A stretch of DNA of 64,000 nt, from NCBI GenBank assembly GCA_028818155.1, contig JAPPOH010000005.1:29943-93942 (forward strand), read 5' to 3'. Position 1 is the stretch's first letter. Each line of letters opens with the position of its first letter. Below the pieces are notes generated by a model, which saw nothing but the letters and a program-made list of their open reading frames with translations, made no database searches and was not told the DNA's origin. A program made the position numbers and the translations under genes. Positions 1,922 through 41,697 of this stretch are shown in pieces. This DNA comes from Candidatus Woesearchaeota archaeon (GTDB lineage Archaea > Nanobdellota > Nanobdellia > Woesearchaeales > UBA525).

Positions 1922-3649
1922 CTAACTCAACTCAGCGTGAAACACAATAGTTCCATTACAAACCCCAATATCGCTCACGTTCAGAGGAATCTGAACCTGC
2001 CAGTACGATGTGTTCATGGAAGGAGAGCCAAGCACCGTCTGCTTCGGTATAGAGAGGCGCAACTGCTGCAACGAACCAGACAACGCTTCCTTCTCAGAAT
2101 ACCCTGCAGTGATGTTCACAGCAAACCGCATGTGCTCAACAGAAACATTATCTGTCGCACACGAAAACGCATTGTTATCACCCAAACTACCACCATACCC
2201 GTACACAGTCACATTAATCTGCTGATTTCCAATATTTGAGACGTTCTGAGAAATATTCGCACTAATATCATTCCCTGAAAGATCGCCAAAGTTCATCAAC
2301 GTATCCGTCACATTCAACGCGTACAATGGATCAACGACAGCAGTATCAACAGCGGTTGCATTCAGCCCCTCCACATCATATGCAGTCACGTTACAGAGCC
2401 ACGTTCCATTCAGCGCAAAATATTGCACGTCAAATGTGCACGTGAAGTTCTTTTCATTACCAAAAGCAGCAACTTCCGAGCACGTACTGTTCGTATAGTG
2501 ATCATTTGCATCGTCTGGTGCACCAGGCGCAACACTATCGATGTGAAAAATCGAGCTCGCATTCACAATATTCGCCTCGCCATCAAGGTCAACAACAGAC
2601 GCGTTGCACTCGACAGTACGAACAGAACCAGCAGTTAAGACAATCGCACTCTCAACAGACACGTTCGGCTCAGGGTAATAGACCTCAAGTGTCAAGTTAA
2701 ACGTCAGAGAGGCACCTTCATTCCCTGATGTGTCTGTGCAGTTCACACTCCAATTATATGCGCCGTTTGACAACACAGTGGTGAAGTTTTGCACCACCCC
2801 CTTCGTCACAGAACTGCTCGTGAGGTTTACAGCTCCATTCAAGAGCAAGCTACAATTCCCAATGGAGGAAAAATCGGTCACGTTATACGTAAAGTTCACA
2901 AGATTACTCGTTTTGTTCAACGTGTTGTTTGCGGGCGCAACAAGCGTGACAACAGGCACCTCTTCATCAACAATCGTAATATTCTCTAACATATCCATAG
3001 TTTGCGCCTCAAGAATCGGACCTTCATTCTCACAAATACTGGTTGCAGTAATAGAAGAATACCCTAACACATACCCAAGCAGCGTGAAGTTCACAAGAAA
3101 ATTATCCCCACGAGTCAGCGTTGGAAACGCCCTCGTAAGGTTTCCTGCAGTTTCATTCAACACAGTGCCATTACCGAACGAAATCGAGACATTGCATGAG
3201 CCATCTGCGCCAAGCAGTGTCGCATTCACTGTTAAATTAAATTCCTGCGACCCATTGTAGCTCGTATTATCCAAAGGAGCAATAATACTAATGTTTAGCT
3301 CAGGATTCCTCGTCAGGTTAAGTGTGATGTTTATCTCAGTCGTGGAAGCGAGCGTTGCGTTCGTTAACCCATAGTGCGTCTCATTCCACGAGTACGCAGC
3401 CACAGCATCGCCGTCCGTCCCTGAAATCGTTGCGGAGTACGCACCACGGAATTGCGGCACAGGGGGAGCATTCACTGTCGTTTGAACAAACGTATTCTCG
3501 GTTGTGTCGTTCAGAAGGACAGGGAACCCATTCGCAACACCAGAGCCATTTGCATGGAAGACATATCCTTTGATATTGTGTGGTGTAGGAGGCGCAACGA
3601 CAGTCACACTCAAGAGAACAACCAAGAGAAAGAAGATCACCCGCTTCAT
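1922..3649 (-). CDS. secreted, heavily N-glycosylation-sequon-rich protein (575 aa) with signal peptide and transthyretin/CarboxypepD_reg-like N-terminal domain; last gene of the giant surface-protein block
   Basis: N-terminus MKRVIFFLLVVLLSVTVVAPP is a signal peptide. There are dozens of N-x-S/T sequons. Its start overlaps the upstream gene's stop (3646-3649). Confidence 0.8.
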   Translation of the reverse strand: MKRVIFFLLVVLLSVTVVAPPTPHNIKGYVFHANGSGVANGFPVLLNDTTENTFVQTTVNAPPVPQFRGAYSATISGTDGDAVAAYSWNETHYGLTNATLASTTEINITLNLTRNPELNISIIAPLDNTSYNGSQEFNLTVNATLLGADGSCNVSISFGNGTVLNETAGNLTRAFPTLTRGDNFLVNFTLLGYVLGYSSITATSICENEGPILEAQTMDMLENITIVDEEVPVVTLVAPANNTLNKTSNLVNFTYNVTDFSSIGNCSLLLNGAVNLTSSSVTKGVVQNFTTVLSNGAYNWSVNCTDTSGNEGASLTFNLTLEVYYPEPNVSVESAIVLTAGSVRTVECNASVVDLDGEANIVNASSIFHIDSVAPGAPDDANDHYTNSTCSEVAAFGNEKNFTCTFDVQYFALNGTWLCNVTAYDVEGLNATAVDTAVVDPLYALNVTDTLMNFGDLSGNDISANISQNVSNIGNQQINVTVYGYGGSLGDNNAFSCATDNVSVEHMRFAVNITAGYSEKEALSGSLQQLRLSIPKQTVLGSPSMNTSYWQVQIPLNVSDIGVCNGTIVFHAELS

Positions 3650-5874
3650 TGTATCCTCCTCCGCACGAACCGGACAGCCAGCGCAATAGTAATTATCAGC
3701 ACAAGCACCAATTCTATCGTTGTAGCCGTTCCTTCACCACCAACTACTTGCCCAGTAATCCCGAGCAAACCCCCTTTCACATGGAGTTCCACAGTCACAA
3801 GCGAGCTGTCAGCGACAAACTCAGTTGCACCAGAACGAAGCAAACCAGGAACAGCAACGGAGAATGCGTGCCCTTTCACATCATGCACGACAAACTCAAA
3901 TACATCACGTAAAGCCCCGCGCCCCGTTCTCGTCCGATACTGCTCACCAGTCTCAAGATCGGTGAGCACAATCGGCAAGTTTGCTCGCCCTCCAATTACC
4001 TTTCCTATGATCGTTACAGGTTCGGGCACAGCAATCACCGTCGGCTCTTGTGCTTTCGGCAGCGCATCTGCAGCAATAGCAAACAACCCAAGACCTCTGA
4101 CTGAAGAAACGAGTGTCGTTCCTTCAAGAGCAGTTCGTTGTACACGCCATTTTCCATCGTATCTGTACAAGGCAACATCTTCAATTGTAATATCGTGCTC
4201 CGCAAGCCACGACTGAGGCACACGGAAGGTGACCTCTGCCTTCTCAAGCCCTTCTATCGTACCATCTAACAACAAATGAAAGTACCCGTACACAAGCTGC
4301 TCCATCGGTTCATCAACGTCCACACGCGCCAAACGGATATCATCAGGAATAGTGTTTGCTCGCACAAAGAGCGCCTGAATGAACTCATTGAAACGGTATG
4401 TTCGCTCAAAGAGTCGTTCTTCTTCTGGCGGCAGAAACTCCTCAAAGTACTCGAGAATGCCACCACCGCCACCACTTTGTACAAATTTCTTGAATGAAAC
4501 AAGCTCAGCGGCAACAGTTTGCGTGACATTCACCGTACCATCACTCACAGCAACAATGAATGAAAATTCTTGTAGCACTGCAGGCTGATAGCGTATGAAC
4601 CCCGTCTCAGAAATGGTGAGTCCTGCTGGTCCGCTCACGAGAGCCATAGTAAGAGCATCCCCATCAGGATCTACAGGCAAGAATTGATAGAGGGCTACCT
4701 GCTCTAGGACAGGCATCTCAACACGAACGGGGACGATAGGCGGATCATTTACATTCTGCACGTGCAGCGCGTACTGTTGAGTCGCTACGAGAACACCATC
4801 GGAGACATTCACTGTGATGTTGTGCACACCCACAGCACCATTTTCAGGCACCCAAACAACAGTATCGCCAACCACATGCATGCCCGTTGGCCCAGAAACA
4901 GAAACAGTCAACGGATCGTCATCATAATCGATGGCAGCGATCGTGTACGCATACTCCACATCTTCTGTCGCGTTCACAGGAGGGGTGCTCAGAATAATAG
5001 GCATATCTGGTATGTTCTGCACCGTAAGCAAGAATGTTTGCGATGTTTCCAGCACACCATCACTCAAAGTCACATTCACTACATGCTCTCCAACATCATA
5101 TGGTCCGGGCGTCCATGATAGGAGTGAGTCAACAAGCGTCATGTTTGTAGGACCAGTGAATGAGATAGAGATTGGATCACCATCCAGATCCTCAGCCACA
5201 AGCGAATACGTCCATTCCACGTCCTGATCAACTGTCGTAGTAGGGATTGAGAGGAAGGTTGGCGCGTCATTCACATTCTGTACAGTGATCGTGAACGATT
5301 GTGTTGTCGATAAATTCCCATCCGTCGCTATATACGTAACAGCATGTGTCCCAACTTGGTGTGCAGTTGGCCGCCAAGCAATAACCCCCGTCGTCATATT
5401 AACAGTCATGCCTGTAGGACCAGCAAGCAACCCATGCTGTATGGGCTGTCCGTTCCATTCGTACGTGTCCACATAATATGCGTACTGCTGATCTTGCACG
5501 GCGTCTACATTCGGCGTGGAAAGAATCACAGGAGGCAAATCAGGCAACGTCATATTCAAGAAAAGATCAACATCATGATGAATACCTGTGAGAACAACAT
5601 CTCTTGAGCTACTATGCACGGGATTCGATGCAGTAATCCTGACAGTATGCCCATTATTCCACGATAACGCAACAGAATATCTCCCAGGACCACGATCCGC
5701 ATACACAGCAAGCACAGCACTCGTATTGAGATCTTCAAACACCACAGTCACGGCACGTGGCACAGGAGTAATCCCGTCCAAAGCATAGATATGACCATCA
5801 ATACCACGAGGAGGCTCTACTGCAGCCACGGACGTCAGCGCGAGCAACGCTACCAAAAGAACGAGCCGTTTCAT
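3646..5874 (-). CDS. cell-surface protein (742 aa): signal peptide, CarboxypepD_reg-like domain, three cadherin-like repeats with VNDAP/VNDPP motifs, C-terminal TM anchor with basic tail
   Basis: Signal peptide MKRLVLLVALLALTSVAAV. Repeats QNVNDAPTF...DLDGDPISISF, QNIPDMPII...DYDDDPLTVSV and QNVNDPPIV...DPDGDALTM. C-terminus TTIELVLVLIITIALAVRFVRRRIQ. Start and stop overlap with both neighbours. Confidence 0.85.
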   Translation of the reverse strand: MKRLVLLVALLALTSVAAVEPPRGIDGHIYALDGITPVPRAVTVVFEDLNTSAVLAVYADRGPGRYSVALSWNNGHTVRITASNPVHSSSRDVVLTGIHHDVDLFLNMTLPDLPPVILSTPNVDAVQDQQYAYYVDTYEWNGQPIQHGLLAGPTGMTVNMTTGVIAWRPTAHQVGTHAVTYIATDGNLSTTQSFTITVQNVNDAPTFLSIPTTTVDQDVEWTYSLVAEDLDGDPISISFTGPTNMTLVDSLLSWTPGPYDVGEHVVNVTLSDGVLETSQTFLLTVQNIPDMPIILSTPPVNATEDVEYAYTIAAIDYDDDPLTVSVSGPTGMHVVGDTVVWVPENGAVGVHNITVNVSDGVLVATQQYALHVQNVNDPPIVPVRVEMPVLEQVALYQFLPVDPDGDALTMALVSGPAGLTISETGFIRYQPAVLQEFSFIVAVSDGTVNVTQTVAAELVSFKKFVQSGGGGGILEYFEEFLPPEEERLFERTYRFNEFIQALFVRANTIPDDIRLARVDVDEPMEQLVYGYFHLLLDGTIEGLEKAEVTFRVPQSWLAEHDITIEDVALYRYDGKWRVQRTALEGTTLVSSVRGLGLFAIAADALPKAQEPTVIAVPEPVTIIGKVIGGRANLPIVLTDLETGEQYRTRTGRGALRDVFEFVVHDVKGHAFSVAVPGLLRSGATEFVADSSLVTVELHVKGGLLGITGQVVGGEGTATTIELVLVLIITIALAVRFVRRRIQ

Positions 5875-8800
5875 GTGAGCGGATCTGCTGTCCAGTTCAC
5901 CTCCTTCGTCGTGTCAAACACATATCCTCTCGTTGGATCAAGCGTCGTGAAATCAGGATTGTTCGCTGAAGGGAACCAACCCCATGGCACACCACCAATA
6001 TTGAAGTGAATCGTGACCTCAAACACATTCGTGTCTGAGTTAAAGCGGTCAATCGCCTGAATAGTATTATTTTCTGAAAGTACAAGCAGTGGCGGATCTG
6101 AATTCGTTGGAAGCGTCTGGTTCAGAACAGTGTGCCAGCTCATGAAGTTCAGACCACTCACTAAGCCAACACGTGTTGTTGTAACAGGCACAACACCAAA
6201 GAACGTATTATTGCATGTTGTGTTCGACTCAAACCAGTAGCTTGCAGTCATGTTCAGACTCGTGAAACCTTCCGATCCAGACGCCGGCGTGAAAACAGAC
6301 CCATTCCAATCTGTTCGCTCATAATCGGTGCTATTATAGCGCCATAGCGAAATCGCACATGCAGGCTCCGTCGAGAATGAGAAGCCGATATTCGTTGTAT
6401 TCTGGAGATCGAACCGTTCAGGAATGAGTGGGAAACTCACGAGACTCAAGTTCAAAGGAAGAACGGTCGTGTACTTCCCTCCTGCTTGCGTTCGCAGCGC
6501 AGTTACAGTGCTTCTAGCAGACTCCACCCAGTAGTACATCTGATCTGAAGACGTGGTGTGCGTATAATTCGTATCTGTAATGCCCGTCACGTTTGGCGTG
6601 CTAGGCCTGTCGCTGTAGTTCGACTGAATATACAGATTGTATGAATCAGCACCTAGAACAGCGCTCCAGTTTATCACAACATCTGTACTATTCCCGTACG
6701 TCGTGAGATTCACAGGAGATATCAAGTGGAAGAACTCGAAGAGTTCAGACGCGCCACTATTCCCCGCTTCATCAACACATGCGACGCTCCAATTCGCTAC
6801 ACCTTCTGTTGCAAGGGAAACATTCCGTATCGTCTCATTCCCTTCTGTGATGTTGATGCTTGTCTCATTCACAACACCATTGATCGTCAACGAACAGTTG
6901 AGGAAGTTCGCAAGGTTATCAGTCACTGTCCAGTTGAAGAGTACGGGACTCGAGGCGTTTGTGTCATTGCCTGGCGCATTGAGCGTTATTACTGGCACTG
7001 ACGCATCCACCCGAACAGTGTAGTTGAAGCTTGCAAAGGCAACATTGCTGAACGTGTCATTACACTCGATGTTCCAGAGAACATGACCGCTTGTAAATGA
7101 CGTATTAATTGTGTTATTTGCCTGATGTACAGGCGAACTATCACTCACATTTGCTGTCCAGCCGGATTCGTTGTGATACAAAGTGCAGGAATCGATGTTA
7201 ATATCATCAACGTAGTACGTAAACACAACAGCACTCCCGTTCCATGAATTATTTAGTGGGAGCTCTAGTGTTATATTCGGTGCAATCGTGTCAGGAACGA
7301 GTTCAAAGAATGTCGAGCCATTCCCATTATCAAGACCATCTCGCTCGCCAAGCGTTACTACGGAGTAATTTCCAAGCGGTTGCTGGAATGTCGCGTACGA
7401 AGTGATGGCTTCACCGAAAATATTCGTTTCATTCTCTGTTACTTGCTTCAAAATGTGTGTTGCCCCCGTTGCTGCTGTTGGCTCGTTCGACATATACATC
7501 CGAACACGAACATCATCTGTGTAGAACTCATTTCCACCGAAAATCTGGAATCGATCGAGAACAACAGAGTCGAATCCAGTATCAGTTCCACTGACGCTCG
7601 TGATGTACTCTCCTGTGTTATTGTACGCCGAGAAATTCATAAACGATGCGTTCTTCGTCATTACCCAAATATACCATGTGTTCGGTGCAAGCTGCACGCT
7701 ACTACCTGTAAGAACAGTATTCCCAACATAGCTGTTTCGATCTTCAATAATGTGCCCGGACGCAGTATCGAAGTCATCAAACCGAGGTCCATATCCATCT
7801 CCGTTCCCATCAACAATTCCATACCTGTTCGATGCTCCACCATTCTCATTAATCCTATTCGTTCTGAATCGTAGCTCATAATCGACAAGTGACTCTCGAA
7901 GCAACTTATATCCTCCGCCAGGGTCGCTGTTGAATGCCTTCCATGCAACATAATTGCCTCCTCCTTCATCGACAACCGCGATTCCTGTTGTCGTATGGTT
8001 CACCCATCCCTGTAGATCACCAGTTTGCATATCATCAAAGAGCATGAAAACATTGCTCGTGTTTTCTGGTGGATCTCCAGGAGTCATGTTCCCATAGTAG
8101 AGGAAGTAATGATCATCAAATTCACCTGCAGGAATGTCTTGTTGGAGAGTAAACCACAGTTCAGTATCGCTTGTGTTGAACGGACTTGCATTGTAACGGT
8201 CAATCTCTACTAGCGTAGCATTCGTGTCGTGATAATAGACAATACGTATATCAGATCCATTCGCAAGCATCAGAGGGTCACTCGTATTGACGGAGAGTTG
8301 AATGCTGTAGTTCTGCTCCACAATATGATCCGCATCGGTGTTCGTGATGTTAATGAGTTGTCTATGTGTATAGCTTTCATTCCACCAAGGAATGTCAGTG
8401 ACACTTGTGTTTGTATAGATGATGGCGGTTGTCGCGTTCGCTTGAATGGAATTGGCAAAGAGGTCTTTCGTAGAAATATTGATTTGCGCAACCTCTCCCT
8501 GCTCGTACGTAGAAGCTGTTGCTATTGTGACATTCAAATACGTGGTATCAAACACATTAAAACTGTGAAGAGCACTCGTCCCATTGTTTGATGTGTCATA
8601 GCATATAACTTGCCACGTGTAGTTTCCATCTTCCATTGAGAGTGCGAATGTTTCCGTTGTGTTCACTGTGATTGTCGTATCCGTCTGGTTCACAGTACCA
8701 TTAATCAGCAAGTCACAGCTAACAATCGCGCTCGTATCCGTCACGTTGTAGCTAAATACAACGCCAGAGGTACCCACAGTCGTGTCGTTCTGCGGAGATA

Positions 8801-16481: not shown

Positions 16482-16599
16482 TTTCCACCTTCTCTTCGTT
16501 GAACTGCTGCATCATCAGCTCAACTTTCGACGATACTTTCATCGCGTTCTCTTTGCAGAGGCGCTTGAACATGACGAATACTTCTTCGTCAATCGTCAT
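16468..16599 (-). CDS. small ORF (43 aa) with ribbon-helix-helix/CopG-like pattern, overlapping the start of the 3536-aa gene by 14 nt
   Basis: Manual translation gives MTIDEEVFVMFKRLCKENAMKVSSKVELMMQQFNEEKVENEKK, a beta-strand followed by two helices. Two TTTATAAA TATA-like boxes at 16655-16675 and the palindrome CCATATAAGTATGG at 16627-16640 lie upstream. It is absent from the ORF track because it is under 60 aa. Confidence 0.45.
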   Translation of the reverse strand: MTIDEEVFVMFKRLCKENAMKVSSKVELMMQQFNEEKVENEKK

Positions 16600-34000: not shown

Positions 34001-37000
34001 GGTTTCCAACGATGAGGATGTGGAGATCACCGTCATCAAGAATATCATCGACGCCTTGTAATTCGAGTTCAATGTACATATCTGCAGCTATCGTGTTGTT
34101 CGCTTCATGTATTCGAGTGTATGAGTTACTCGTGTGGTTGAATACGTAAATATAGAATGTATCTGCTGTCTGGAATGTTTGCTGTGTAACATACCCTTCG
34201 TAGAAGAAGAGGATTTCTTCTATATCGATCGGCGATTCAGTCACTTCAAATCGGAAGCTCTGATAGACGGACTCTCCAGTATCTGTTGTTGTTGTCGTCG
34301 CAAGTCGAACGTTATTCGACGTTGTGACAGATGAGTAACTCGAGGTTGATATTTCTGTTTCTCGAACGGGGGTACTTGTCGGCAGCAAACTTCCGTTTGC
34401 ACCATCATATAACGCATGTATGTTACTTGGATGCGTGATACCTGTGTATGTGTACGTGCTCACCACATCAGCAGGTTCGATAAATTCAATGAGTGGCTCA
34501 TGTGTCATTCGCTGCCACTCGAATTCAATGTACGCTCCAGGACTTGTCGCTGTGCCATCATTTTCAAAGTCACCACATCCAACATCTGTGAATGCCCGCC
34601 CTGTCCAGAGTGCACACGAGAGTGTGTCATCTTCTCCCTGATCATATACAAAGATTTCATCATTTCCAGGACTGCTCGATGTGATAACATGTCCAACATC
34701 TCCTCCGCCTGGTTGTCCAATAGGATTTCCTTCACCCCAATCACTAAACGACCATGAATTTGAGCTAATCGTGTAGAAGCCACCTTCAGGGAAGTCTTCA
34801 TTCGCATCAACCCACACATATACGATCTGGTCACCTGATTTTTCAATGGCACAGCTTGTTGAATGCAGGGCTGCTGTTCCTTCGTTCCCACCACATTCAC
34901 TTGCAGTATCTTGTACGGGTGTTTCCGAGGATAGTGCTTTCGAGAATGCACTGCCATCCCAGTAGCCACCATCACGATCAGCATCCTGATCACACGTCAT
35001 AACACCGATGTAATCGTGTGCAAACGACCCTGTCGATGGTGATTCTCCACACAAATGCACCTCTCGGGCTTCAGCACCAAGACCATCGTAGATGTTGCCA
35101 AGATGCGTCCACGCATTTGTGCTTGGCTGGAATCGCCATGCATAGAGATCGTCTGAGTTATTCCCGTATGCGAAGAGCATTTCTCCAGAATTTCCTTCCC
35201 ATGCACATGAGAACTGCTTTCTGTCATCTCCATCAGCTTCTAATGTAACGTTGATCGTATGGTTAAACACATTGTTGTCTCCATCCCACACGGTTGCGTA
35301 AATATCACCTGTTCCCGCATCATTTTGTATGCCCATGCCGATGAGGTTAGTGTCCTTTTGTGCACAAAGCTCAAGCCATCTGAAGTCGTTGTTCGGCGCT
35401 CCACTGATACTGTATGTCTGCTCTGTACTGAGATTATCTCCATTCCACAATCTGTAAGCGAAATCCCCATCAAGCCCATTTGCTGTCTCATACACGACGA
35501 GACAATCTTCACTGACGAGATCTTCACATGCGACATCGAAACTACGCTGCACATCCAAGCCCCGATTCGGCTCTACTTGTGTGATATTATGCCACACTCT
35601 GTTCACGATGTCGAATACCGCAAAATCAATAGAGTTATCGACTTCTTGAATCATAGCATAGCACTCGGGCCGCCGTTGAGCACAAACAAATCGATACCAT
35701 GAGATATTGCTTCCAAGTGCGCCAAAGATGTTTTCTTCTTCGCCAAGTACACCGGTCCAATTCCTCTGTAGCGGATTCTCTGGATCAGTGAGGTTTGCGT
35801 ACAGGAGTATTCCAACTTCACCAAACTTCGGTAGTTCAAGATCATTGAACTCTGATGGGGCGTTGACAGTGAATGCACGTTGTTCACTCGTATTCTTATT
35901 CGCACGATTATCAGTGCACGTGACATTCCACGTGTGTGCTCCGTTCGCAACTTCAACAGATCTAGTCGTTGCAGTGCCATTGGGAGAGGGGATGTTTCCG
36001 AGACGAATAGCACCATCAACGATAAGATCACACGCAAGCTCAGGATCTGTATTGTCCGTTGCAGTCCAGTTGAATGTGATCAATGAGACAGCAAAGCTTT
36101 CTGACACGAGCGGTGCGTTGAGGACGATAGTGGGCTCCTCTTCATCAACAATACAGGTGCCACCCCACTCCCCTCCGTCTTGGTAGAACCCTTTCCAGAC
36201 AAGATCCCCAGAGCTGTTTGTGAATGCTACTACAAAGGAACCCTCACAGATGCCAAAGCCAAGCTGCGTGTCGGCGCCAATCGCATCATGTAGGAGGTAT
36301 GTCGCATCAGGCTCACTTGTAATGTTGAATGGTCCTGCCACATAGCTGCCGTTATTATCGAAGACTGAGGCTTTGATGCTGTTATCTGCTCGGTCTTGCC
36401 AGACGACAGCGATATTGCTCGTCCCTTGGAACTCAACTTCTGCGGCAGCAACTCTCGTTTCAGTCCCTAAGTCAGTGTCAACTGCAGCAGAGCCGATTGT
36501 TGTGAACGTATCACCTCCAACATCAAGCACAGTGAGATTGACGTGGTTGACGGCACTGTCGAAGTACACAATACCAACGCGTTCTCCTCCAATGTGTGCA
36601 ATCGCAACCTGTCCTGTTTCACCAATATTCGTGTCAATATCAGTTATGTTGTTGATGATGCTCGCACCTGTGTTTGGAATGATTCTTGCGCTCAAGTCAT
36701 TCTGACTGTCATCGAACCATGCTGTTACGGCGCGCGTGCTGTTCGTTGTTGTACAATCGACAAGGTTCTGGAGTGTTTGTGCAGGCGCAATGTTTCCATC
36801 AATGTTGAACTCACTCACACTCAACGTGCCATCATTCGTGTAGATCTCTCCATCATAGTCGTTATTCAAATCTTCTCCATACGCGACAATGAACTCTGCA
36901 CCGTACTGGCAGACGCCCATGTCTGTGAAGATATTTACATCTGCGTCAACCTGTGTTTGTCCCACCACCGCAGAGCCATTTTCGTGATAGATGTAGAAGT

Positions 37001-40000
37001 CAACATCTTCTTCAGGACCATCATTCACGATGACAACGAAATGTGTTTCATTGATCGGTGCCGCTGCGATGCGACTGGAATCGTCAACAGTTGTATCGAT
37101 ATCAACTTCTGGCACGAGGAGTGTTCCATTTGCGTCCCAAACTTCAAATGATGTGTGATTACTATCAACATCAACCCACGTCACAATAATCGTTGTGTTA
37201 TCGAGTGCCGCGAGTGCTACATCTTGTCCCTGGCTGGCATCGACGTATCCGGTAGGCACATCAACTGTGACGAACCGCGTTTCACTCGTGTTTACGTTGC
37301 CAAATGTATCTTGACACGTGACGTTCCAAATATACAAGCCATCTGACAGAATGAGCGATTTGTTTGCCGCTACACCTGCGCTCGATCCAATTGTGGCTTC
37401 CACATTGCCATTTATGGTCAAGTTACAACTAAGGAACACTGCCTGATCGTCATCAGCTGTCCAATTGAAATCAGTGAGTGATGTGGGTACTGTCGAATCG
37501 TTCGCTGGGGAATTTAGTGTGATGTTTGGTGCGATGTCATCAAACCCACAGAAGCCATCCCATGTACTTCCATTCACGAGGAAGAGTTTTCGCTCACCAA
37601 CGGCAGAGCTATTCGTGAATGATACAACGAATGTCCCATTGCAGAGCCCAGCTTCGTGCTGGGAATTGTATCCTGCAACACCGTGCAATCTGTACGTATC
37701 ATTGATATTTGTGCTAATGTTAAAGGCCGGTGTGATGAGCGTTCCTGTTCTGTTGTACACAACAGCCTCAATGACATCTTCTCCTTGATCATACCATGTC
37801 AGCACGAACATGCTTTCATTGTCTGCTTCAATTTCTGCAACATCTAATCGCACTTGCGAAGTAACAGACGTGTCAATGTTAACAGGGCCAACAGCCGCTG
37901 AGATGGAATCTGCGGATGTATCGACGACAAGCATTTTCACAGTGCTCTCTGGAGAATCATAATAGAACATTGCTATGTCTTCGTCTCGTAACCCTGCGAG
38001 TGCCATCTGTGATGTGCCACCAACATCAAGATCTGCTCCTGATGGCCCTGCAACGATAGATCCTGTTTCATCGTAGAGTGCTGCTGTGAGGTCGTCTGTC
38101 GCGTCATCAAACCAGCTCACGAACCACCTCGTGTCGCTCACCGGCACAACGGAAACGAGATTCTGTAAGTTTTGGTCAGGCGCGACGTTATCGTCAATAT
38201 CGAATTCAGTAGCTTCAACACTGCCGTTGAGATAGTGGATCATGCCGTGAAGATCATCGCCGCTCGTGTCATCGACCCACGCAGAAACGATTCGATTTTG
38301 AATGTATGCTGATGACACGTCAACATTTACGCCCGCATCCGTATCAAGAATGAATGGCGCACCGATCGTACCTTGTTCAAATGCGCCCCAGTACACGAGC
38401 TCACCTGTGTGCGTGTCACAATCATCATTCCCGTCTTGTTCACAGTAGCGGAAGTCCATGCCACCAGCGACAACATTTCGGGCCCACGGATATTGTGGAT
38501 CTTGTCCACCGTCATCATCGTTTTGTGTCACCATGACAATAGGGTCTGCAAAGGTCGGTGTGAATGTTGCTGCTGTCCAGTCAGAGTTGCTGATGTCGGC
38601 ACTTCCTGATTGGAAGCCACCTATTTTGTGATTTCCCGTGTCAATCGCAATCCAACCAACAGTTTCAGTGGAGTCTCCTCCTGTACAGGTATCTCCTGTG
38701 TCTTCATGGACACAGCCAAGAACAGTCGTATGACTTGCGTTTGTATCCGCTCCCTCAATCCATGTGTTCATCGCCATTTCACCAGCAGTTTGCGTGTATG
38801 TTTGTGGTGTCGCGAAGACAAAGGGTGTTCCTGAGAGTGTTTTGCCAAAGGAAACGGCATTATCTGCCCCATTGTGATTTATCCCAGCGGTTGTTCCTGC
38901 AGCGATCCAGTCATATGCTGTGATCGCATCTGGGTCAACGACGACGTAGTGGACCGTTTCAAGATCTGTGTCAGTGTCACACGTTGTTGCGGCGTTGTCT
39001 CGACAGAGACTGACGTTGAATCCTGTGCTCGTTACATCTTTTACGACAGGAACGAAGCCGTTATTGTCATCGGCTGCTGCTGCGTTTTGGCTTGCAGGTG
39101 TTGCAATCACAACAGGCGCATTCGAGTATGTGTTTGCGAACGTGATGTATTGGAAATTAAAGTCTTCAACTTGTGTGCTCCCTGCTTCGCCTATTGGTCG
39201 GTAGGTGTGGTGTCCGCTTTTATTGTAGACGTAGATGTAGTTTGTATCATCATCTGCGTCATAGAGATTGATCAAGAAGTGTGTCGTGTTGATTGTCGCT
39301 GCATCAATGCGTCCCCAGTTTGACGATCCATCTTGCACATCGGTATCAATGTCAATTGCTCCATACAGATCTGTCTCATTTGTGTGTATAATTCTGAAAC
39401 TTGCATCCTGACTTGTCTCTTCTATGTATGCAACAACGTAGAGATCTTCATCTAGTGCTGTGACGTCTGATTCGACGACAGGCTCATCGGAAAACTCTGG
39501 GTCGATTGCCAAGTACCATGGTCGTGCTTCGGTAATTGTTGTTGTGTCGTACGCGACTTTCGATTGTCCAAGTTGGTAGAGTTCTGGGGTGATTTTCGGG
39601 ATTGTTGCTGTGTAGCTCACTGTGGAGCCGTTGCTGAGGTTATTCCACGTAAGGAAAATGTTCGTCGTATCTTGTGTTTGCGTTGCTGTGCTTGTGATGT
39701 TTGTGAAGTTGATGGGCAAGACTTCTGTATAGTTGAACGCACCGCTATGGTTGAATGACGTGACTGTTACAGACACAGCGAGCAGCTCTTTGAATGGATC
39801 TATCGTCACGGGCGCATTCCTGATGATGTCGAACGGATAGTGTTCCTGCACGAGGAAGAAGGAGAGCATGCTCTGGTTCACATTCACATCGTGTGCTTCC
39901 ACGAAGAGATCGTATGTTCCTTCTTGTTCTGGTGTGTATATCGCTTCGTACACTCCATCAGATGTCTCTATGATCGTTGTGATATTCGTCGTTATGTTAT

Positions 40001-41267
40001 TCGGGTCTGTGACAAGCAGTTGTATATCTGCGTTACTCACGAGGAATCCGTTGTTGTCGAGCACAACCATGACGATTTCTGCTGTCTCATTCGGGCGATA
40101 GATGGGCTTTCTTGTGTTGACTGTGGCAACGCCTGTCTCTGCGTAGCCAGGATCGCCAGGGTAGAGGAGAATATCGTACTGTTCTCCTGGCCTGAGGTAC
40201 TTGTGCAATTCCCATGTGCCGAAGCATGTTTGTGTGGTGAAGTTCCATTTTGCACACTTCCAGAGTTGGCTTCCTTGTGCCGTACTCGTCGCTGTTGCAT
40301 TACTGAAGTTCAAATTGTCAAGGTTAATCGCGTATGCTTTGAGTACAGGATCGCCGTTGATCTCAACGCTTTCTTTCGGGAGATCATCAATGCCAATTTC
40401 AATCGTTTCCTGCGGTACACAGTCGTGAATATCTAGCTTTTGTACTGCTCTACTGTCTGGCGTGACGTGGACTTCGTATGAGTTGTTGCTGTTTTTCTCA
40501 AACTTGACAGCTGCGTATCGTCCTTGCCCTTCATTATTCACAACGCCGAAGGTAAAGAGGCCATGCTCATTTTCAAACTCTTGTGCCGGAACGTCAACAA
40601 TGAGTGCAGGTTCTGGTTCTTCTATCTCATCACCGGGCTCTGGTTCGTCAGGTGTTGGTTGTGGAAGGAGTGCTGGTTGGACGGTGAATGCATGTCTCCC
40701 TACGACGGCACCATTCTCGGAGATGATGATTTCGTGCAAGCCTGGATACTTTGGCACGAACGGTGAATCTCGCCATGGGCCGAAGTATTTGAACAAGCCA
40801 CCAGGGCCGTTGATGATGATCTTGATATCTTGTGTTGGGGGTGGTGTGATGGATATGTGGACGTTTTGCTCTGCTCTCGGTTCTTCGCTGATGGTGATTG
40901 TCCTTGTCTTATTCGTCTCGTTCGCTTCTTGGACGGTGAATATGTCTTGGTGCACAACCTGTCCTGAGCTGTCGATGAGTTGGACGGTGTATTCGCCCGG
41001 TGTTTTCGGCACGAATGGAACAACCTCCCCTGGTTCATCTAGGAGCCTGTACTTTGCTTCCGGCGCGAAGATCATGATACGTGAGCTGTCGTTTGTTGTG
41101 TTGATGAGGACGGGTTCTCCAACGTTGTAGAGTGTTTTGTCTGTGATTGCTATTGTGAGTGGAAGGATTACTAAGAGTGCTACAATGAAGGCGTACTTGG
41201 CTGTGGTGGATTGTCCTCTAGCCATGTTTCCACCTCTTGATGATCGTTGGATAGAATGTGTGTCCAT
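25047..41267 (-). CDS. giant secreted/anchored multi-domain protein (5406 aa; about 5392 aa if it starts at the alternative ATG 41225). It has an N-terminal signal anchor, two copies of the ~270-aa Cys-rich cassette domain, at least two CARDB-like domains, many Ig-like and FN3-like repeats, and the conserved C-terminal domain
   Basis: Uninterrupted 16.2-kb ORF. N-terminal hydrophobic segment AKYAFIVALLVILPLTIAITD. The alternative start 41225 overlaps the upstream regulator's stop by 8 nt (CATGGCTAG). The C-terminal ILWDTSDGGSA...GIYDYEIKIPATL matches the 2785-aa protein. Confidence 0.9.
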   Translation of the reverse strand: MDTHSIQRSSRGGNMARGQSTTAKYAFIVALLVILPLTIAITDKTLYNVGEPVLINTTNDSSRIMIFAPEAKYRLLDEPGEVVPFVPKTPGEYTVQLIDSSGQVVHQDIFTVQEANETNKTRTITISEEPRAEQNVHISITPPPTQDIKIIINGPGGLFKYFGPWRDSPFVPKYPGLHEIIISENGAVVGRHAFTVQPALLPQPTPDEPEPGDEIEEPEPALIVDVPAQEFENEHGLFTFGVVNNEGQGRYAAVKFEKNSNNSYEVHVTPDSRAVQKLDIHDCVPQETIEIGIDDLPKESVEINGDPVLKAYAINLDNLNFSNATATSTAQGSQLWKCAKWNFTTQTCFGTWELHKYLRPGEQYDILLYPGDPGYAETGVATVNTRKPIYRPNETAEIVMVVLDNNGFLVSNADIQLLVTDPNNITTNITTIIETSDGVYEAIYTPEQEGTYDLFVEAHDVNVNQSMLSFFLVQEHYPFDIIRNAPVTIDPFKELLAVSVTVTSFNHSGAFNYTEVLPINFTNITSTATQTQDTTNIFLTWNNLSNGSTVSYTATIPKITPELYQLGQSKVAYDTTTITEARPWYLAIDPEFSDEPVVESDVTALDEDLYVVAYIEETSQDASFRIIHTNETDLYGAIDIDTDVQDGSSNWGRIDAATINTTHFLINLYDADDDTNYIYVYNKSGHHTYRPIGEAGSTQVEDFNFQYITFANTYSNAPVVIATPASQNAAAADDNNGFVPVVKDVTSTGFNVSLCRDNAATTCDTDTDLETVHYVVVDPDAITAYDWIAAGTTAGINHNGADNAVSFGKTLSGTPFVFATPQTYTQTAGEMAMNTWIEGADTNASHTTVLGCVHEDTGDTCTGGDSTETVGWIAIDTGNHKIGGFQSGSADISNSDWTAATFTPTFADPIVMVTQNDDDGGQDPQYPWARNVVAGGMDFRYCEQDGNDDCDTHTGELVYWGAFEQGTIGAPFILDTDAGVNVDVSSAYIQNRIVSAWVDDTSGDDLHGMIHYLNGSVEATEFDIDDNVAPDQNLQNLVSVVPVSDTRWFVSWFDDATDDLTAALYDETGSIVAGPSGADLDVGGTSQMALAGLRDEDIAMFYYDSPESTVKMLVVDTSADSISAAVGPVNIDTSVTSQVRLDVAEIEADNESMFVLTWYDQGEDVIEAVVYNRTGTLITPAFNISTNINDTYRLHGVAGYNSQHEAGLCNGTFVVSFTNSSAVGERKLFLVNGSTWDGFCGFDDIAPNITLNSPANDSTVPTSLTDFNWTADDDQAVFLSCNLTINGNVEATIGSSAGVAANKSLILSDGLYIWNVTCQDTFGNVNTSETRFVTVDVPTGYVDASQGQDVALAALDNTTIIVTWVDVDSNHTSFEVWDANGTLLVPEVDIDTTVDDSSRIAAAPINETHFVVIVNDGPEEDVDFYIYHENGSAVVGQTQVDADVNIFTDMGVCQYGAEFIVAYGEDLNNDYDGEIYTNDGTLSVSEFNIDGNIAPAQTLQNLVDCTTTNSTRAVTAWFDDSQNDLSARIIPNTGASIINNITDIDTNIGETGQVAIAHIGGERVGIVYFDSAVNHVNLTVLDVGGDTFTTIGSAAVDTDLGTETRVAAAEVEFQGTSNIAVVWQDRADNSIKASVFDNNGSYVAGPFNITSEPDATYLLHDAIGADTQLGFGICEGSFVVAFTNSSGDLVWKGFYQDGGEWGGTCIVDEEEPTIVLNAPLVSESFAVSLITFNWTATDNTDPELACDLIVDGAIRLGNIPSPNGTATTRSVEVANGAHTWNVTCTDNRANKNTSEQRAFTVNAPSEFNDLELPKFGEVGILLYANLTDPENPLQRNWTGVLGEEENIFGALGSNISWYRFVCAQRRPECYAMIQEVDNSIDFAVFDIVNRVWHNITQVEPNRGLDVQRSFDVACEDLVSEDCLVVYETANGLDGDFAYRLWNGDNLSTEQTYSISGAPNNDFRWLELCAQKDTNLIGMGIQNDAGTGDIYATVWDGDNNVFNHTINVTLEADGDDRKQFSCAWEGNSGEMLFAYGNNSDDLYAWRFQPSTNAWTHLGNIYDGLGAEAREVHLCGESPSTGSFAHDYIGVMTCDQDADRDGGYWDGSAFSKALSSETPVQDTASECGGNEGTAALHSTSCAIEKSGDQIVYVWVDANEDFPEGGFYTISSNSWSFSDWGEGNPIGQPGGGDVGHVITSSSPGNDEIFVYDQGEDDTLSCALWTGRAFTDVGCGDFENDGTATSPGAYIEFEWQRMTHEPLIEFIEPADVVSTYTYTGITHPSNIHALYDGANGSLLPTSTPVRETEISTSSYSSVTTSNNVRLATTTTTDTGESVYQSFRFEVTESPIDIEEILFFYEGYVTQQTFQTADTFYIYVFNHTSNSYTRIHEANNTIAADMYIELELQGVDDILDDGDLHILIVGNQTTAAGIDARADIFTDYVEVRTRMRPNIRLTQLSNISAEDDNGVDVCDYYYHNDTIGIGPEGTLKANATSFYNSSDTTVAANALYNLTAECNDTFGAENNETIDVRIDNVAPSIALDTPGNNTSPPTSNVTFGWNGTDDFTGTLICNLTIDDILNVSNVAADVGGQANVTVFSVPDGTHNWSVTCIDQAGNSATSETFYFTQNTGPPTVTLNAPAANAFLNESTVLFNYTPVDPIGIGNCTLILDGVANETNTSVTANQPNFFNITGISNGVHLWSVNCTDLGGFEGSSSTRNFTVDTIGPLALLNTTDGITFTEGVASLNFTVFDNLDTELLCNITINGVVEDSNIPSPARAYDKSCDETIGEAGAVQVEDFQFAYITYNRTYTSTPVVIATPASQNAGAAEDDNGFVAVVKDVTTTGFNVSLCSDNGATTCDTTTELEDVHYVVIDVDAIAGYDWIAAGTSTGIQGNGVEQTMSFGKTLSGVPHVWGTMQTYTQNAGEMAMGFWFDDADTTTSQTGLTGCVHEGIANDCTGSDATETIGWVAITPDEQIVGYQNSSAAIASSTWTAATFTPAYTTPIVMVAQNDDAGGQDTQYRWARSVVAGGMDFRYCEQDAADTCDTHAAELMVWGAFEEGNVSGPPPDGCAEVMINRNLTLPDGLHFWNVTCVDEAGNYNISETRNFTIVGPPFIELQVPVNGTTQSGNTVNFTYYVQDGDGIGNCSLIIDDVVNRSNTTGLTVPGNNSFIVNNMATGVHTWTVNCTDNLGENGTAYNGPYTINIDGIPPFINLSLPLNDTTALIPAINFNFTPIDDFSANMTCNLTIDGVVDSGNLNFNAPNNTLTNRVQTLGNGIHEWNVTCSDASGNVNTSETRFVTVNITLPVNISVVTDKSNYQQGEIVNITVTVFNSSWAQLNTNVTTDIIYTNASTTGAPWWNTSWGRRIAIDLNETTNSPRYGEVVLVNISNLDGYNTDCDTELRIVEFKNNVTVELPRTIVDGNGTHYCEVFFAANITANAFDQDRYFAYFNNTGASGSPANATVASRGNVQRGTVDGTGADFIVELPTPVTVANSFLLFTANSADTSPDGNRFTGNITNSTHLHFSRYLGTAAANISWQVIEHEDITMQQGNNTLTSGTLTTTADIAEVDVTKSFIVVSASGDSTSTSLNNIAFVRGHFVNSTQIEFERLTGGAESNVAWQVVTWEGTRVQNGTATMDAGDTIETVVINAFNDTRSFIIMSRTIANDTGLDENHVRAEFVGSDRVSFERSVGANGVAMIDWFMVEMPRRTVTQVDDSAFSTDTSVAINEVVLNRTFHISTWESTGGGTTYTNAMLIATLTNGTNLSYDKQTASNTNTVTTFVVELSNYSSIEAILTGHQIHLQQDINESGVGGNFTNLWNSSGRDFGNYSAVGRAVADPDSLGVDHAIFGIASDIFPPEVTILAPPNNTIDDVTDITFVYTANDLGTTIANCSLLLNGEINQTNTTITEMVNQSFLIENMGEGDYSWTVQCTDTVGNIGNATNGPFRLIIDETDPVVTAIDPDGTVHSSNDILFNFTVADNVDLLLFCNISVDEGTYWNTTTAVNGSVTTGAVSGIGDGFHYWNVTCYDDNNNTGISNTLNFTNDAAPLVVLTTPVDGYGTPVGNISFNYTVVESSLSNCSLIIDGIVNQTKNSSEIPNQDGDDPNEFNLTGIPEGVHNWTVTCVDTNGFSGSGSPVREFHVDSGTPTVTLNAPANNATFFVTTVDFNFTAIDNIDPVLDCNVTVNGDVNITTTADNGTATVVTGSGFTAGNYSWNVTCIDNTGFVNTSETLNFSVSPDVNVILNSPDDNASDSDGDVTFIYTPQSVADFDSGGFCELIIDGSNNQTDGTITNNAENNFTLESLNEGSYTWQVNCTDNDVVRGASEIRTIYIDFTNPTVQPHHPNGTTFAVSTILFNWTAIDNIDPTLSCNVSLDSVLVAGDIDSPNGSVANTTISSINDSLHLWEVSCTDDSGRIGASDTFNFTVNEPPKVVLDAPSNGTRAAVTSFMLNYTPTDNSENIGNCTLIVNGLNNQTNTTVSHNVTNDFNLTALAHGEYNWTVSCIDLSSNEGINDTNYTFYVDLFGPTIILNLPLDLETLNSNNVTFNWTPIDHPGSTVNCSLFVTNASNNITVTGITGTANTDFNTTVAGLADGSHDWNVTCSDDLGNTNNSLTQSFVINQPDLVLNETSRINFNETNPDLGETINITANVSNIGGTGANDVLVQFWDGLPSAGGTLIGNDTQTVAFNSSTIFSVSWNITFGYHEIFVSADPDGLIGELVENNNNASRNISLLFANITQPLENNITADTTPQIDFNISDFTGGNLSYVIYVDDTANGQVGVVQDLQNNSLNITALADGVHTIIVQANDTLQRFKNSTPLTIRIDTTAPNVTFLTQNDSWYAVTNVTIEFNITDVFSANLNYTFYLDGTLNHTNTTTNNTRNTVNLSNLAEGQHTVTVEAEDELGNIDNSTVLTFYVDLTPPVPNTTTANNTWFNTLTPGIDFNITDNLDPILNYTIYVDGVANTNGTSTNGVEATATLNAITEGNHTIIVQALDEAGHVVNDTEIVIYVDVTPPNVTLLTPLNDTNLSSTSVTLNFTVSDNLGTPLICNLTLDDVVVSVNVSVTNGSFHNFTVNDLNSGYHFWNATCIDNATNAGISETWQFFVELSDLEINAGNITFSNSTPIENQTVEVNATVFNIGNLNATNITVQFFLGDPDLGGVQINGNATIASLGIGENTTVSMNHSAVIGLNRIYVLVDPPLATNGSIAEENESNNEAFRDFNVGHFEIFAGTSGNELKISDASIISAFKWNQTNVTGSNVFVADTDSSLIFTSLQAIGRNTTNGTDTGNDDFEEIDQQLNATSLNDSVNLTWTSGGAPVASITLQSFKRTITDIPVVNSTNTSSFVTGILWDTSDGGSAYNTSQDIVFVTIMNESQAGQYGIYDYEIKIPATLRDYILGGGSVSFYTELR
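32090..32930. repeat. copy B of ~820-bp intragenic repeat cassette (within 5406-aa gene)
   Basis: Same alignment as copy A. The antisense ORF 32698..33318 peptide MSHVVAPLSLHKLTLNPVVVTSFTTATKPL... parallels MSVSHVVAALSRQRLTLNPVLVTSFTTGTKPL... at 38968. Confidence 0.8.
38370..39210. repeat. copy C of ~820-bp intragenic repeat cassette (within 5406-aa gene, ~5.4 kb from copy B)
   Basis: Same alignment as copies A and B. Confidence 0.8.
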
Positions 41268-41697
41268 GGATTAAGCGTCCTGGTTTCGCGAAAAAGTCAC
41301 TTCTCAGGAATTCCTTGACGGTGAGCCAGCGTGCATTGACCGCTTCTGATCTTGTGAAGTCCTTTGTGATGATTAAGAGGCCGTCTGGTCGTTCGAACGC
41401 CAATTTAATGTTGTATTCTTTGGCGTGCTTCTCTATCCATTCGTGTTTTTTGTTGTCTGTGTGGACTAAAGAAAGAAGGAGTAATGCTGCGTTGTTGTTT
41501 AGATTGATGCGGCAGTTGTGGCTGTGGCCGATTGTCTCTTTTGTGAGGATGTTGTCGTTGAGAAGTTTTGTTGCAGTTTTGTGTGTGTTCGCGTATGCGG
41601 TGCCGGTATTTTGTGCGAGTTGTCGTATTGTGTATGCTGCGCGCAAGTCGTGTGCAAATACTGCTATCAGTCTCAGTGTCAGTTTTGTTACTTGCAT
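41218..41697 (-). CDS. winged-HTH DNA-binding protein (159 aa), putative transcriptional regulator; first gene of the giant-gene transcription unit, stop overlapping the start region of the 5406-aa gene
   Basis: HTH-like segment YTIRQLAQNTGTAYANTHKTATKLLNDNIL. ATG start at 41697. Divergent promoter region with a palindrome array immediately upstream. Confidence 0.7.
   Translation of the reverse strand: MQVTKLTLRLIAVFAHDLRAAYTIRQLAQNTGTAYANTHKTATKLLNDNILTKETIGHSHNCRINLNNNAALLLLSLVHTDNKKHEWIEKHAKEYNIKLAFERPDGLLIITKDFTRSEAVNARWLTVKEFLRSDFFAKPGRLIHGHTFYPTIIKRWKHG

Follow-up and report, generated by a model that had tools for sequence, protein, structure and literature searches.

A gene cassette conserved in the Woesearchaeota probably builds a multi-subunit, heavily N-glycosylated apparatus for attachment at the cell surface; we put the probability of this reading at roughly 0.55. 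The cassette covers about 40 kb of the 64-kb stretch of DNA that was analysed (hereafter the window), in a MAG of Candidatus Woesearchaeota (DPANN), and consists of seven minus-strand genes in two adjacent sub-operons. Operon 1 has the order g159 (wHTH-like), giant A1, giant A2, and operon 2 the order s50 (ribbon-helix-helix, RHH-like), giant B, g742, g575. The recurrent gene set defined in this way comprises a signature domain that Pfam does not contain, giant proteins of two classes, a separate membrane anchor and a secreted partner, as well as two small putative regulators, one of which has a conserved operator-like palindrome.

To our knowledge, only a few cultured pairs have so far given much insight into the way DPANN archaea recognise other cells and attach to them, and we know of no established molecular candidates for attachment in the Woesearchaeota, one of the most widely distributed DPANN groups and an uncultured one. 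The components described here are usable as trait markers; they also offer queries for metatranscriptomes and metaproteomes and targets for work with enrichment cultures.

Organisation of the cassette

The cassette adjoins Cdc6 on a 214,583-bp contig deposited as 'Candidatus Woesearchaeota archaeon', and neither tRNA nor Rfam RNA genes were found in the window. The original prediction described six genes, all of which were recovered on the minus strand at 1922-3649 (575 aa, g575), 3646-5874 (742 aa, g742), 5871-16481 (3536 aa, giant B), 16693-25050 (2785 aa, giant A2), 25047-41267 (5406 aa, giant A1) and 41218-41697 (159 aa, g159). The junctions at 25047-25050, 5871-5874 and 3646-3649 are indeed 4-bp overlaps of the ATGA type, and at 41218-41225 (ATGGCTAG) the stop codon of g159 runs into an ATG that is in frame with the largest gene. 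This ATG is the probable start of giant A1: the public gene call uses the internal Met at 41225 (Met15), giving 5392 aa, and that for giant A2 likewise starts at an internal Met, at 25026 (Met9), giving 2777 aa. The 211-bp gap reported within the block is, however, not empty. It holds a small ORF on the minus strand, s50 (16468-16620), which extends into the beginning of the giant B gene and is annotated as a gene in public data, so that the block has seven genes instead of six and resolves into the two-operon layout, the second operon being led by s50. The overlapping stop and start codons suggest that each operon is co-transcribed.

Because the assembly is a metagenomic one from short reads and the genes are rich in repeats, the giant ORFs could be decaying pseudogenes or assembly chimeras, the latter already considered in the original prediction; we regard an artefact of this kind as extremely improbable. 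The reading frames are uninterrupted over up to 16.2 kb, and no DNA repeat within the block exceeds about 81% identity, which makes repeat collapse or chimeric assembly unlikely. The same architecture is moreover found in independent assemblies from NCBI, JGI, ENA and Logan, in which the conserved N- and C-terminal domains lie at true protein ends.

The giant proteins and the LWKC domain

The three giants of the window are paralogues which share an N-terminal module. An exhaustive search of cluster representatives with this module gave matches in 890 of them (732 at E<=1e-10). Many of the 890 are 2000-7000 aa long, the median being 2370 aa among the best 150. Relatives of the giants come almost exclusively from Woesearchaeota/Nanoarchaeota MAGs. 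Part of the shared module is a domain which we call LWKC, located on the minus strand at 40128-40475 in giant A1 (aa 265-380), 24097-24444 in giant A2 and 15558-15896 in giant B. It is a beta-sandwich of about 115 aa in which two Cys are invariant and a DPG[FY]xE motif nearly so, and it has no match in Pfam. The relatives carry between one and seven copies, with up to seven in tandem, their modules are shuffled and their domain content varies strongly.

LWKC may resemble the beta-sandwich of the ZU5, FIIND and GAIN domains; the best Foldseek match is not significant (E 0.24) and the sequence identity is about 10%. The near-invariant Asp-Pro of LWKC lies at the turn that leads into the last strand. 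As many as seven tandem copies would be unexpected for a self-cleaving module, and we take the resemblance as a lead, not as membership. A more specific version of our reading, in which a 742-like anchor and 575-like adaptor, giant fibres, an RHH/wHTH switch and a self-cleaving, ZU5/GAIN-like LWKC domain make up an attachment organelle specific to the Woesearchaeales, seems to us quite improbable. If it were true, self-cleavage at the Asp-Pro of LWKC would leave the fibre tethered non-covalently, by analogy with the force-sensitive link of adhesion GPCRs.

Export, domain content and sequons

A signal anchor had been predicted for the largest protein only, whereas all five exported proteins turned out to have an N-terminal hydrophobic signal sequence. 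Apart from this signal, the giants contain no hydrophobic segment, including at the C-terminus, and no Pfam or NCBIfam match to a sorting domain; the type-A giants thus have neither a TM anchor nor a recognised sorting signal. Giant A1 (25047-41267, minus strand) consists of a signal peptide, the shared N-terminal module, 20 Cys-pair Ig repeats, an MG2/filamin-like domain, two H-type lectin modules, Big_13/Big_3_3, CARDB and a type-A C-terminal domain. Giant A2 (16693-25050) has a signal peptide, the N-terminal module, 10 Ig repeats, one H-type lectin module, CARDB and a type-A C-terminal domain (16693-17634). When the type-A C-terminal model was compared with solved structures, the CARDB half alone was matched, and the last ~190 aa had no match. 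Giant B (5871-16481) has a signal peptide, the N-terminal module, 12 Ig repeats, FN3-like domains and a weak match to DUF2341, as well as three BclA_C/C1q-like domains (13884-15560, BclA_C E 2.8e-16) and a type-B C-terminal domain (5871-6512). The two smaller exported proteins have an N-terminal domain in common. In g742 (3646-5874), the membrane-anchored subunit, the signal peptide is accompanied by He_PIG, Big_9 and cadherin-like repeats, a PGF-pre-PGF-like domain (4141-4317; TIGR04213 at 30.3 bits, cut-off 28) and a C-terminal TM helix (3664-3720, aa 719-737) followed by an RRRIQ tail. The secreted, sequon-rich subunit g575 (1922-3649) has a signal peptide, the shared N-terminal domain, two Ig repeats and a Cys-rich C-terminal domain of about 245 aa (1925-2659), and a profile search with it returned no solved relatives. 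The searches assigned no function to most of the long stretches between repeats, to the type-A and type-B C-terminal domains or to the C-terminal domain of g575.

The domain assignments made earlier from the sequence held to different degrees. The Ig-like Cys-pair repeats are of one type, present in 44 copies, and the CARDB and cadherin-like (Cadherin_4/5) matches score above the Pfam cut-offs, as do He_PIG, Big_9 and Big_13; three H_lectin and three BclA_C modules come in addition. The transthyretin-like and FN3 modules gave sub-threshold Pfam matches only, even when excised segments were used, and the ConA/LamG modules had no Pfam match among the proteins of the window, excised segments included. 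A search of the whole proteins and of 10 excised inter-repeat segments gave neither Laminin_G nor peptidase families at E<=0.01-0.05. One relative, in L114, does carry Laminin_G_3.

All five proteins had been described as saturated with sequons. This is so for four of them, in which N-X-S/T sequons are 2.7-3.7 times as frequent as in composition-preserving shuffles (44 observed vs 11.9 shuffled, 216 vs 67, 138 vs 52 and 269 vs 94; z 12-22), but not for the 742-aa protein, which has 10. Such extreme density would also suit the main glycoproteins of a wall or sheath, and the cassette could encode an S-layer-like, protective and glycan-rich coat which is anchored by g742 and does not bind specific cells. 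The combination of one anchored and several unanchored subunits would suit a coat, as would the PGF-pre-PGF-type domain of g742, which is typical of archaeal surface-layer proteins and here just above its cut-off; S-layer protein genes are also among the most highly expressed genes of Woesearchaeota in situ (PMC11606122). We nevertheless consider this reading rather unlikely. S-layers usually consist of a single abundant, moderately sized protein or of two, whereas here there are three paralogues which have diverged, are 2800-5400 aa long and carry lectin and C1q-like modules, and the strongly varying domain content, with 1-7 LWKC copies and shuffled modules, would be unexpected in a lattice protein. 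The dedicated small putative regulators, for their part, suggest conditional and not constitutive expression. The likeness of g742 to PGF-CTERM/archaeosortase glycoproteins is confined to its PGF-pre-PGF-type domain and its terminal hydrophobic helix with basic residues: the protein ends in ...TATTIELVLVLIITIALAVRFVRRRIQ, which has the helix and the basic tail and lacks the PGF tripeptide of the PGF-CTERM motif. No archaeosortase (ArtA) gene was found among the scanned proteins of the 64-kb window.

The exported proteins have the architecture of fibrillar adhesins, with 44 Ig-like repeats, adhesive or lectin domains (H_lectin, BclA_C, CARDB, He_PIG and cadherin-like) and N-terminal signal sequences. 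Bacterial fibrillar adhesins, such as the 7651-aa adhesin of Mobiluncus, consist of a stalk of Ig-like repeats and adhesive modules (PMC10619420). The likeness lies in the long Ig-like array presenting binding modules, and Big_13, Big_3_3, Big_7, Big_9, CARDB and He_PIG are in common. The cassette differs in being archaeal, in its Cys-pair repeats, in its dense N-glycosylation sequons and in its anchor, which would act in trans.

Conservation of gene order and the membrane anchor

The gene context of the cassette is kept in relatives. A g159 homologue is located directly upstream of a giant gene, on the same strand, in six contigs (L003, L004, L006, L010, L011 and L033), that of L033 being 38% identical over the full length and overlapping the giant gene by 4 bp. 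An s50 homologue precedes a giant in all four contexts examined (L028, L114, L115 and L116), each of which also has a giant gene upstream of s50 (CARDB-bearing in L028, L115 and L116). The order giant B, g742-like, g575-like is found in four contigs, namely L028, L029, L030 and L032 (the L032 anchor is a short form, with similarity to g742 in the N-terminal part only), and, within the stretch of DNA retrieved, in L115. It is present in 10 of the 13 informative metagenome loci, while part of the triad is absent in the other three. In L028 and L115 the order forms part of a longer one: A, s50, B, anchor, 575-like. The outcome of the comparison with relatives proposed at the outset is thus in favour of a linked system, and against the unlinked, scattered S-layer paralogues that would have refuted it.

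The C-terminal TM helix is confined to the 742-aa protein, as predicted. The g742 orthologues in L028, L029, L030 and L032 all have a C-terminal TM helix and a cytoplasmic tail; the tail in L028 is rich in Q, while the other three are short and basic. In each orthologous set the middle protein is the only one with such a helix. Full-length g575 orthologues (32-44% identity) always follow a g742-like gene.

These observations bear on whether the giants could be tandem paralogous fibrillar adhesins which each act alone, their linkage reflecting common descent and co-expression. In favour of this, the giants are clearly paralogous and their modules have been shuffled, a 280-aa segment with the H-type lectin module is 77% identical between the A1 and A2 proteins, which suggests recent exchange, tandem pairs of giants occur in many relatives, and modules recombine into other architectures (for example, the N-terminal half of g575 with a type-A C-terminal domain). 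Independent action would however have to account for the g742-like and g575-like genes, which are not paralogous to the giants and keep a fixed order after type-B giants despite identities of 30-45%, and for a membrane anchor on just one of giant B, g742 and g575. The fixed order and the single anchor are hard to explain without functional interdependence, and we hold independent adhesins to be an unlikely explanation.

Taken with the palindrome described below, the conserved gene order supports a co-regulated, multi-subunit surface apparatus over scattered paralogues, as far as can be judged from sequence. In such an apparatus, Sec signal peptides would direct the export of the giants, whose Ig-like Cys-pair repeats would make up long stalks. 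The stalks would carry binding modules at intervals (H-type lectin, CARDB and three C1q/BclA-like in tandem), together with the family-specific C-terminal domains. The complex would be held on the cell by g742, since it is the sole component with a C-terminal transmembrane helix, and g575 could be an adaptor or co-subunit. The idea of an assembled surface structure with its own regulator is upheld as regards the kept gene order and the single TM anchor per set; we infer the glycosylation, the formation and anchoring of the complex, and attachment to another cell or surface.

Relation to known giant proteins

The SPEARE proteins of Nanohaloarchaeota are giant (3300-8500 aa), mostly extracytoplasmic and rich in adhesion domains, with a TM segment, a conserved cytoplasmic type III restriction-enzyme region, and laminin-G, serine-protease and toxin-like regions (PMC6642349). 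In both systems, giant DPANN proteins account for several percent of a small genome, with a proposed role in host contact (Hamm et al. 2019, PMC6642349). SPEARE is nevertheless a single polypeptide, whereas the Woesearchaeal cassette has its anchor as a separate gene and is defined by other modules, namely the LWKC domain and the type-A and type-B C-terminal domains. Pfam searches gave neither restriction nor helicase families in the five exported proteins, laminin-G, serine-protease and toxin-like regions were likewise not found in them, and membership of SPEARE was rejected because the giants lack a TM segment with a restriction-enzyme region. The cassette may thus point to a multi-subunit organisation, as opposed to the single giant polypeptide of SPEARE, as one DPANN solution.

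In genomic layout, the closest analogue is Giant1-5 of the bacterial symbiont Apilactobacillus kunkeei (Lactobacillaceae), described as five consecutive genes for extracellular proteins of 3000-8000 aa with a large share of the genome (PMC12863079); the comparison concerns layout only. The literature searched, with limited coverage, contained no description of the Woesearchaeal giant family or cassette. To call the locus an undescribed system, as had been done, is too strong because giant adhesin-like proteins are an established theme in DPANN (SPEARE, PMC6642349); it is the particular giant family and the cassette that are new.

Putative regulators and their upstream regions

The first gene of operon 1, g159 (41218-41697, minus strand), codes for a cytoplasmic protein of 159 aa with an N-terminal wHTH-like region and a C-terminal domain of about 90 aa. 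For the wHTH regulator originally proposed here, Pfam gives sub-threshold matches only, to HVO_A0114 (E 0.0048; 17 bits, the cut-off being 27.6), HTH_IclR and RepL. The weak HVO_A0114 match is shared by three of five members of the g159 family, and a profile search gave no PDB relatives. An ArsR-like HTH gene beside the L028 cassette was considered as a relative and found to be unrelated to g159. Upstream of g159, a putative promoter of operon 1 (41721-41761, minus strand) has two TATA-like boxes, 41742-41749 and 41753-41761, and after them the palindrome GCTATAATATCATAGC (41721-41736).

In operon 2, s50 encodes 50 aa from a GTG start, or 43 aa from the ATG at 16599, and is putatively a ribbon-helix-helix DNA-binding protein. 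This assignment draws on a sub-threshold Pfam match to DUF6364 (E 0.009) and on weak matches of the positional counterparts in L030 and L032 to HicB, ParG, CcdA and RH3 (E 6e-4 to 0.05). Its candidate promoter/operator (16635-16685, minus strand) has two TTTATAAA boxes at 16665-16672 and 16678-16685, then the palindrome AACCATACTTATATGGTT at 16635-16652, which sits between the TATA boxes and s50 and of which 0.01 matches are expected by chance per window. An inverted repeat as candidate operator at the gene's own promoter is what an RHH-type regulator would have. Both g159 and s50 would bind DNA and may repress or tune their own operons via the palindromes just downstream of the TATA boxes. 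Homologues of s50 make up 23 clusters (that of the window and 22 others) with 60-84% identity, far above the 30-45% of the giants. In the aligned upstream regions of five loci (the window, L028, L114, L115 and L116), the TATA box followed by the palindrome is kept upstream of s50, and the palindrome core CATA-N4-TATG is invariant.

Gene layout and export signals

The six genes predicted on the minus strand between positions 1922 and 41697, encoding proteins of 575, 742, 3536, 2785, 5406 and 159 aa, were recovered at exactly the predicted coordinates. Three of the gene junctions are ATGA-type 4-bp overlaps, and the stop codon (TAG) of g159, the 159-aa gene, overlaps an in-frame ATG at 41225 within the largest gene. 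Public gene calls start the largest gene at this ATG (5392 aa) and the 2785-aa gene at Met9 (2777 aa). The 211-bp gap between the 2785- and 3536-aa genes, originally read as intergenic, turned out to hold a small ORF, s50 (16468-16620, minus strand; 50 aa from GTG, 43 aa from the ATG at 16599), which overlaps the beginning of the 3536-aa gene and is annotated as a gene in public data. The cassette is carried on a 214.6-kb metagenomic contig, and its GC content (0.43-0.49) is similar to that of the remainder of the window. Since no DNA repeat above ~81% identity was found inside the block, a chimeric assembly via repeat collapse is unlikely. A Cdc6/Orc1 gene (306-1598, minus strand) directly adjoins the cassette, is deposited under Candidatus Woesearchaeota archaeon, and is followed by the small and large subunits of PolD (13374-18345 in L001, the contig locus extending beyond the window), so the block probably lies beside a replication origin. 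The three ORFs upstream of g159 (41809-45121; 247, 396 and 386 aa) have neither a significant Pfam match nor a signal peptide, and nothing corresponding to them occurs in the related cassettes examined.

A signal had been claimed for the largest protein alone, but all five exported proteins (the three giants and the 742- and 575-aa proteins) have a charged n-region and a hydrophobic segment at their N-termini. A second hydrophobic helix is confined to the 742-aa protein, where it spans aa 719-737 ahead of RRRIQ, in agreement with the single C-terminal anchor predicted for it. Sequon saturation is seen in four proteins (about three-fold over shuffled expectation, z 12-22) and does not extend to the 742-aa protein, which has 10 sequons.

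A family of giant proteins and its domains

The three giants are paralogues sharing an N-terminal module of ~350 aa (alignment A1). Its core, the LWKC domain, comprises ~115 aa with the pattern YAIDP..NFTNA..LWKC..WNF..Q.C.G.W...PG..Y......DPG[FY]xE, two invariant cysteines and no Pfam match. An exhaustive profile search with the module over 1.84 billion representatives matched 890 proteins at E<=1e-3, of which 732 reach E<=1e-10 and 218 reach E<=1e-30; among the best 150 of the 890, the median length is 2370 aa (maximum 7289 aa) and each protein carries 1-7 LWKC copies. A scan with the N-terminal alignment of the giants, limited to one genome for each species, gave 26 loci. Almost all come from MAGs and SAGs of Woesearchaeota or Nanoarchaeota; those labelled otherwise are few and include a 774-kb "Methanosarcinales" chromosome. 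The family occurs in records labelled "uncultured Methanosarcinales" at L023 (OZ246410.1), L007, L010 and L024. Methanosarcinales chromosomes are larger than 774 kb, and as one of these records is a complete chromosome of that size, these records with a DPANN-type giant family are probably taxonomic mislabels.

The Cys-pair Ig-like repeat is present in 44 copies (20 + 12 + 10 + 2 across four proteins). Matches to CARDB, Big_13 and Big_3_3 pass the Pfam thresholds, as do He_PIG, Big_9 and Cadherin_4/5 in the 742-aa protein; MG2 falls just under its cut-off, and for several inter-repeat regions, 360-740 aa long, no match was obtained at all. The Ig-like, CARDB and cadherin-like modules of the original prediction are thereby borne out; its FN3 modules were found only below threshold (like DUF2341), and LamG/ConA was not found by Pfam in the cassette proteins. 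The 3536-aa giant contains three tandem BclA_C (C1q/TNF-like) domains (13884-15560, minus strand; E 2.8e-16). Such domains normally trimerise, and with three copies in one chain they might form an intramolecular pseudo-trimer. An H-type lectin passes the Pfam threshold when its segment is excised (27.7 bits), with two further copies just below the cut-off; the module containing it lies at 20505-21220, 32078-32796 and 38351-39072 (minus strand). The copies in the 2785-aa (aa 1237-1514) and 5406-aa (aa 692-971) proteins share 77% protein identity. Other alignments of the pair lie much lower (mostly 25-40%, with one ~900-aa stretch at 41%), which suggests a recent duplication or gene conversion.

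The giants divide into two classes according to their C-termini, which in both cases are always found at the extreme end of the protein. Type A, in the 5406- and 2785-aa proteins and at least 27 of the 150 representatives, consists of CARDB plus ~190 aa ending in YDYEIK.P; in its structural model (pLDDT 88.7) only the CARDB half matches solved structures. Type B corresponds to the final 213 aa of the 3536-aa giant and is found in 10 other representatives. The 742- and 575-aa proteins have a common N-terminal domain of ~100 aa, and the latter ends in a Cys-rich domain of ~245 aa for which no relatives of known structure were found. An S-layer-like protective coat is an improbable reading of these proteins, as the size, divergence and module shuffling of the giants speak against a lattice protein.

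Conservation of gene order

The original prediction had taken the context in related genomes as its own test, and there the g159, s50 and type-B linkages all recur. Homologues of g159 lie immediately upstream of a giant gene, on the same strand, at six related loci (L003, L004, L006, L010, L011 and L033); that of L033 matches g159 along its full length at 38% identity, shares the 4-bp overlap, and precedes a 2974-aa type-A giant, after which comes another giant. Homologues of s50 directly precede a giant gene and have another upstream at L028, L114, L115 and L116, the upstream giant carrying CARDB in L028, L115 and L116. At L028, L029, L030/L031 and L032, the type-B giant is followed by a g742-related gene (He_PIG/Big_9-type in the first three; in L032, a 264-aa form whose similarity is limited to the N-terminus) and then by a full-length 575-aa orthologue (32-44% identity), and in 4/4 sets the C-terminal TM helix is limited to the middle protein. 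Scanning metagenomes with the 575-aa family gave 444 relatives. Thirteen loci had a full-length orthologue and sufficient upstream DNA; ten show the order type-B C-terminus, 742-like N-terminus, 575-like gene, and the other three have the 742-like gene only, the type-B end only, or neither. The longer order of type-A giant, small ORF, type-B giant, anchor and 575-like gene is also found in L028 and L115. The cassette is a real, conserved feature; an artefact of the metagenomic assembly is very hard to credit.

The s50-led half of the cassette (putative operon 2) is extended in L030 and L032, where it opens with a different small RHH-like ORF and also includes a TM protein of ~950 aa and a ~300-aa paralogue of the C-terminal domain of the 575-aa protein. 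Such paralogues, as stand-alone genes, lie in or beside the cassette at L028 20620-21540, L030 8811-9725 and L032 5905-6792, two genes of 307-309 aa are similarly placed at L114 7979-9881, and many such short forms appear in the metagenome scan. Stand-alone secreted proteins of 231-253 aa, comprising little beyond the last ~185 aa of the type-A C-terminal domain, adjoin the cassette at L028 21548-23054 and L030 26462-27966; the ArsR-like HTH gene beside them is unrelated to g159, and the window has no stand-alone genes of this kind.

Proposed function and known systems

We favour, with a probability of roughly 55%, a co-regulated multi-subunit surface apparatus, for which attachment to a partner cell or substrate is most plausible in a DPANN archaeon. 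Long glycosylated fibres of Ig repeats would bear the lectin-type and C1q-like modules, the membrane anchor would be encoded separately, and a secreted adaptor would complete the assembly. Paralogous adhesins acting independently and merely co-expressed seem a doubtful alternative in view of the fixed order of non-paralogous partners and the single anchored member.

Giant adhesion-domain proteins are already known as a hallmark of some DPANN genomes, the SPEARE proteins of Nanohaloarchaeota reaching 8553 aa (PMC6642349). The window proteins lack the features that define SPEARE: a TM segment combined with a cytoplasmic restriction-enzyme region, laminin-G and a protease. In layout the closest analogue is bacterial, the Giant1-5 cluster of five genes in Apilactobacillus kunkeei (PMC12863079). 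No description of this Woesearchaeal family or cassette was found in the literature searched, the partial coverage of which makes this weak evidence of novelty; nor are giant or surface proteins mentioned in a survey of 208 complete Nanobdellota genomes from 2026. The surface apparatus proposed here provides a defined candidate attachment cassette, and the LWKC domain an unannotated signature, for a major uncultured archaeal group.

Putative control elements

With 60-84% identity to its homologues in 22 other clusters, s50 is conserved far above the orthologous giants (30-45%). Its sequence suggests a beta-alpha-alpha pattern, as in ribbon-helix-helix (RHH) proteins; its Pfam matches (DUF6364) are all sub-threshold, and the ORFs in its position in L030 and L032 give equally weak matches to HicB, ParG and CcdA. 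Upstream of s50 are two TTTATAAA boxes (16665-16672 and 16678-16685), and between these and the ORF, just past the TATA box, lies the palindrome AACCATACTTATATGGTT (16635-16652), unique in the window with 0.01 chance matches expected. A copy is found at L028 4457-4474 and variants in L114, L115 and L116, the core CATA-N4-TATG being invariant in the aligned upstream regions. Its conservation among genomes in which the giants have only 30-45% identity makes the palindrome a likely operator; archaeal repressor operators are usually arranged in this way, as palindromes that follow the TATA box and overlap the expected start site. The promoter region of g159 (41721-41761, minus strand) has the same layout, with TATA-like boxes (one at 41742-41749) and then the palindrome GCTATAATATCATAGC (41721-41736). 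The g159 protein gives only weak matches, to HVO_A0114 and IclR-type HTH. Judging from these sequence features, s50 and g159 would be regulators of the cassette. A palindrome with 8-bp arms also lies just upstream of the g159 orthologue of L033.

The flank encodes a double Lrp/AsnC-type HTH protein and a TrmB-family regulator (47118-48110, minus strand, and 49754-50836, plus strand). Farther along are GDH, an RPA-like OB-fold protein and a GT2 glycosyltransferase (59475-60404), which could be relevant to glycosylation but shows no linkage to the cassette in relatives.
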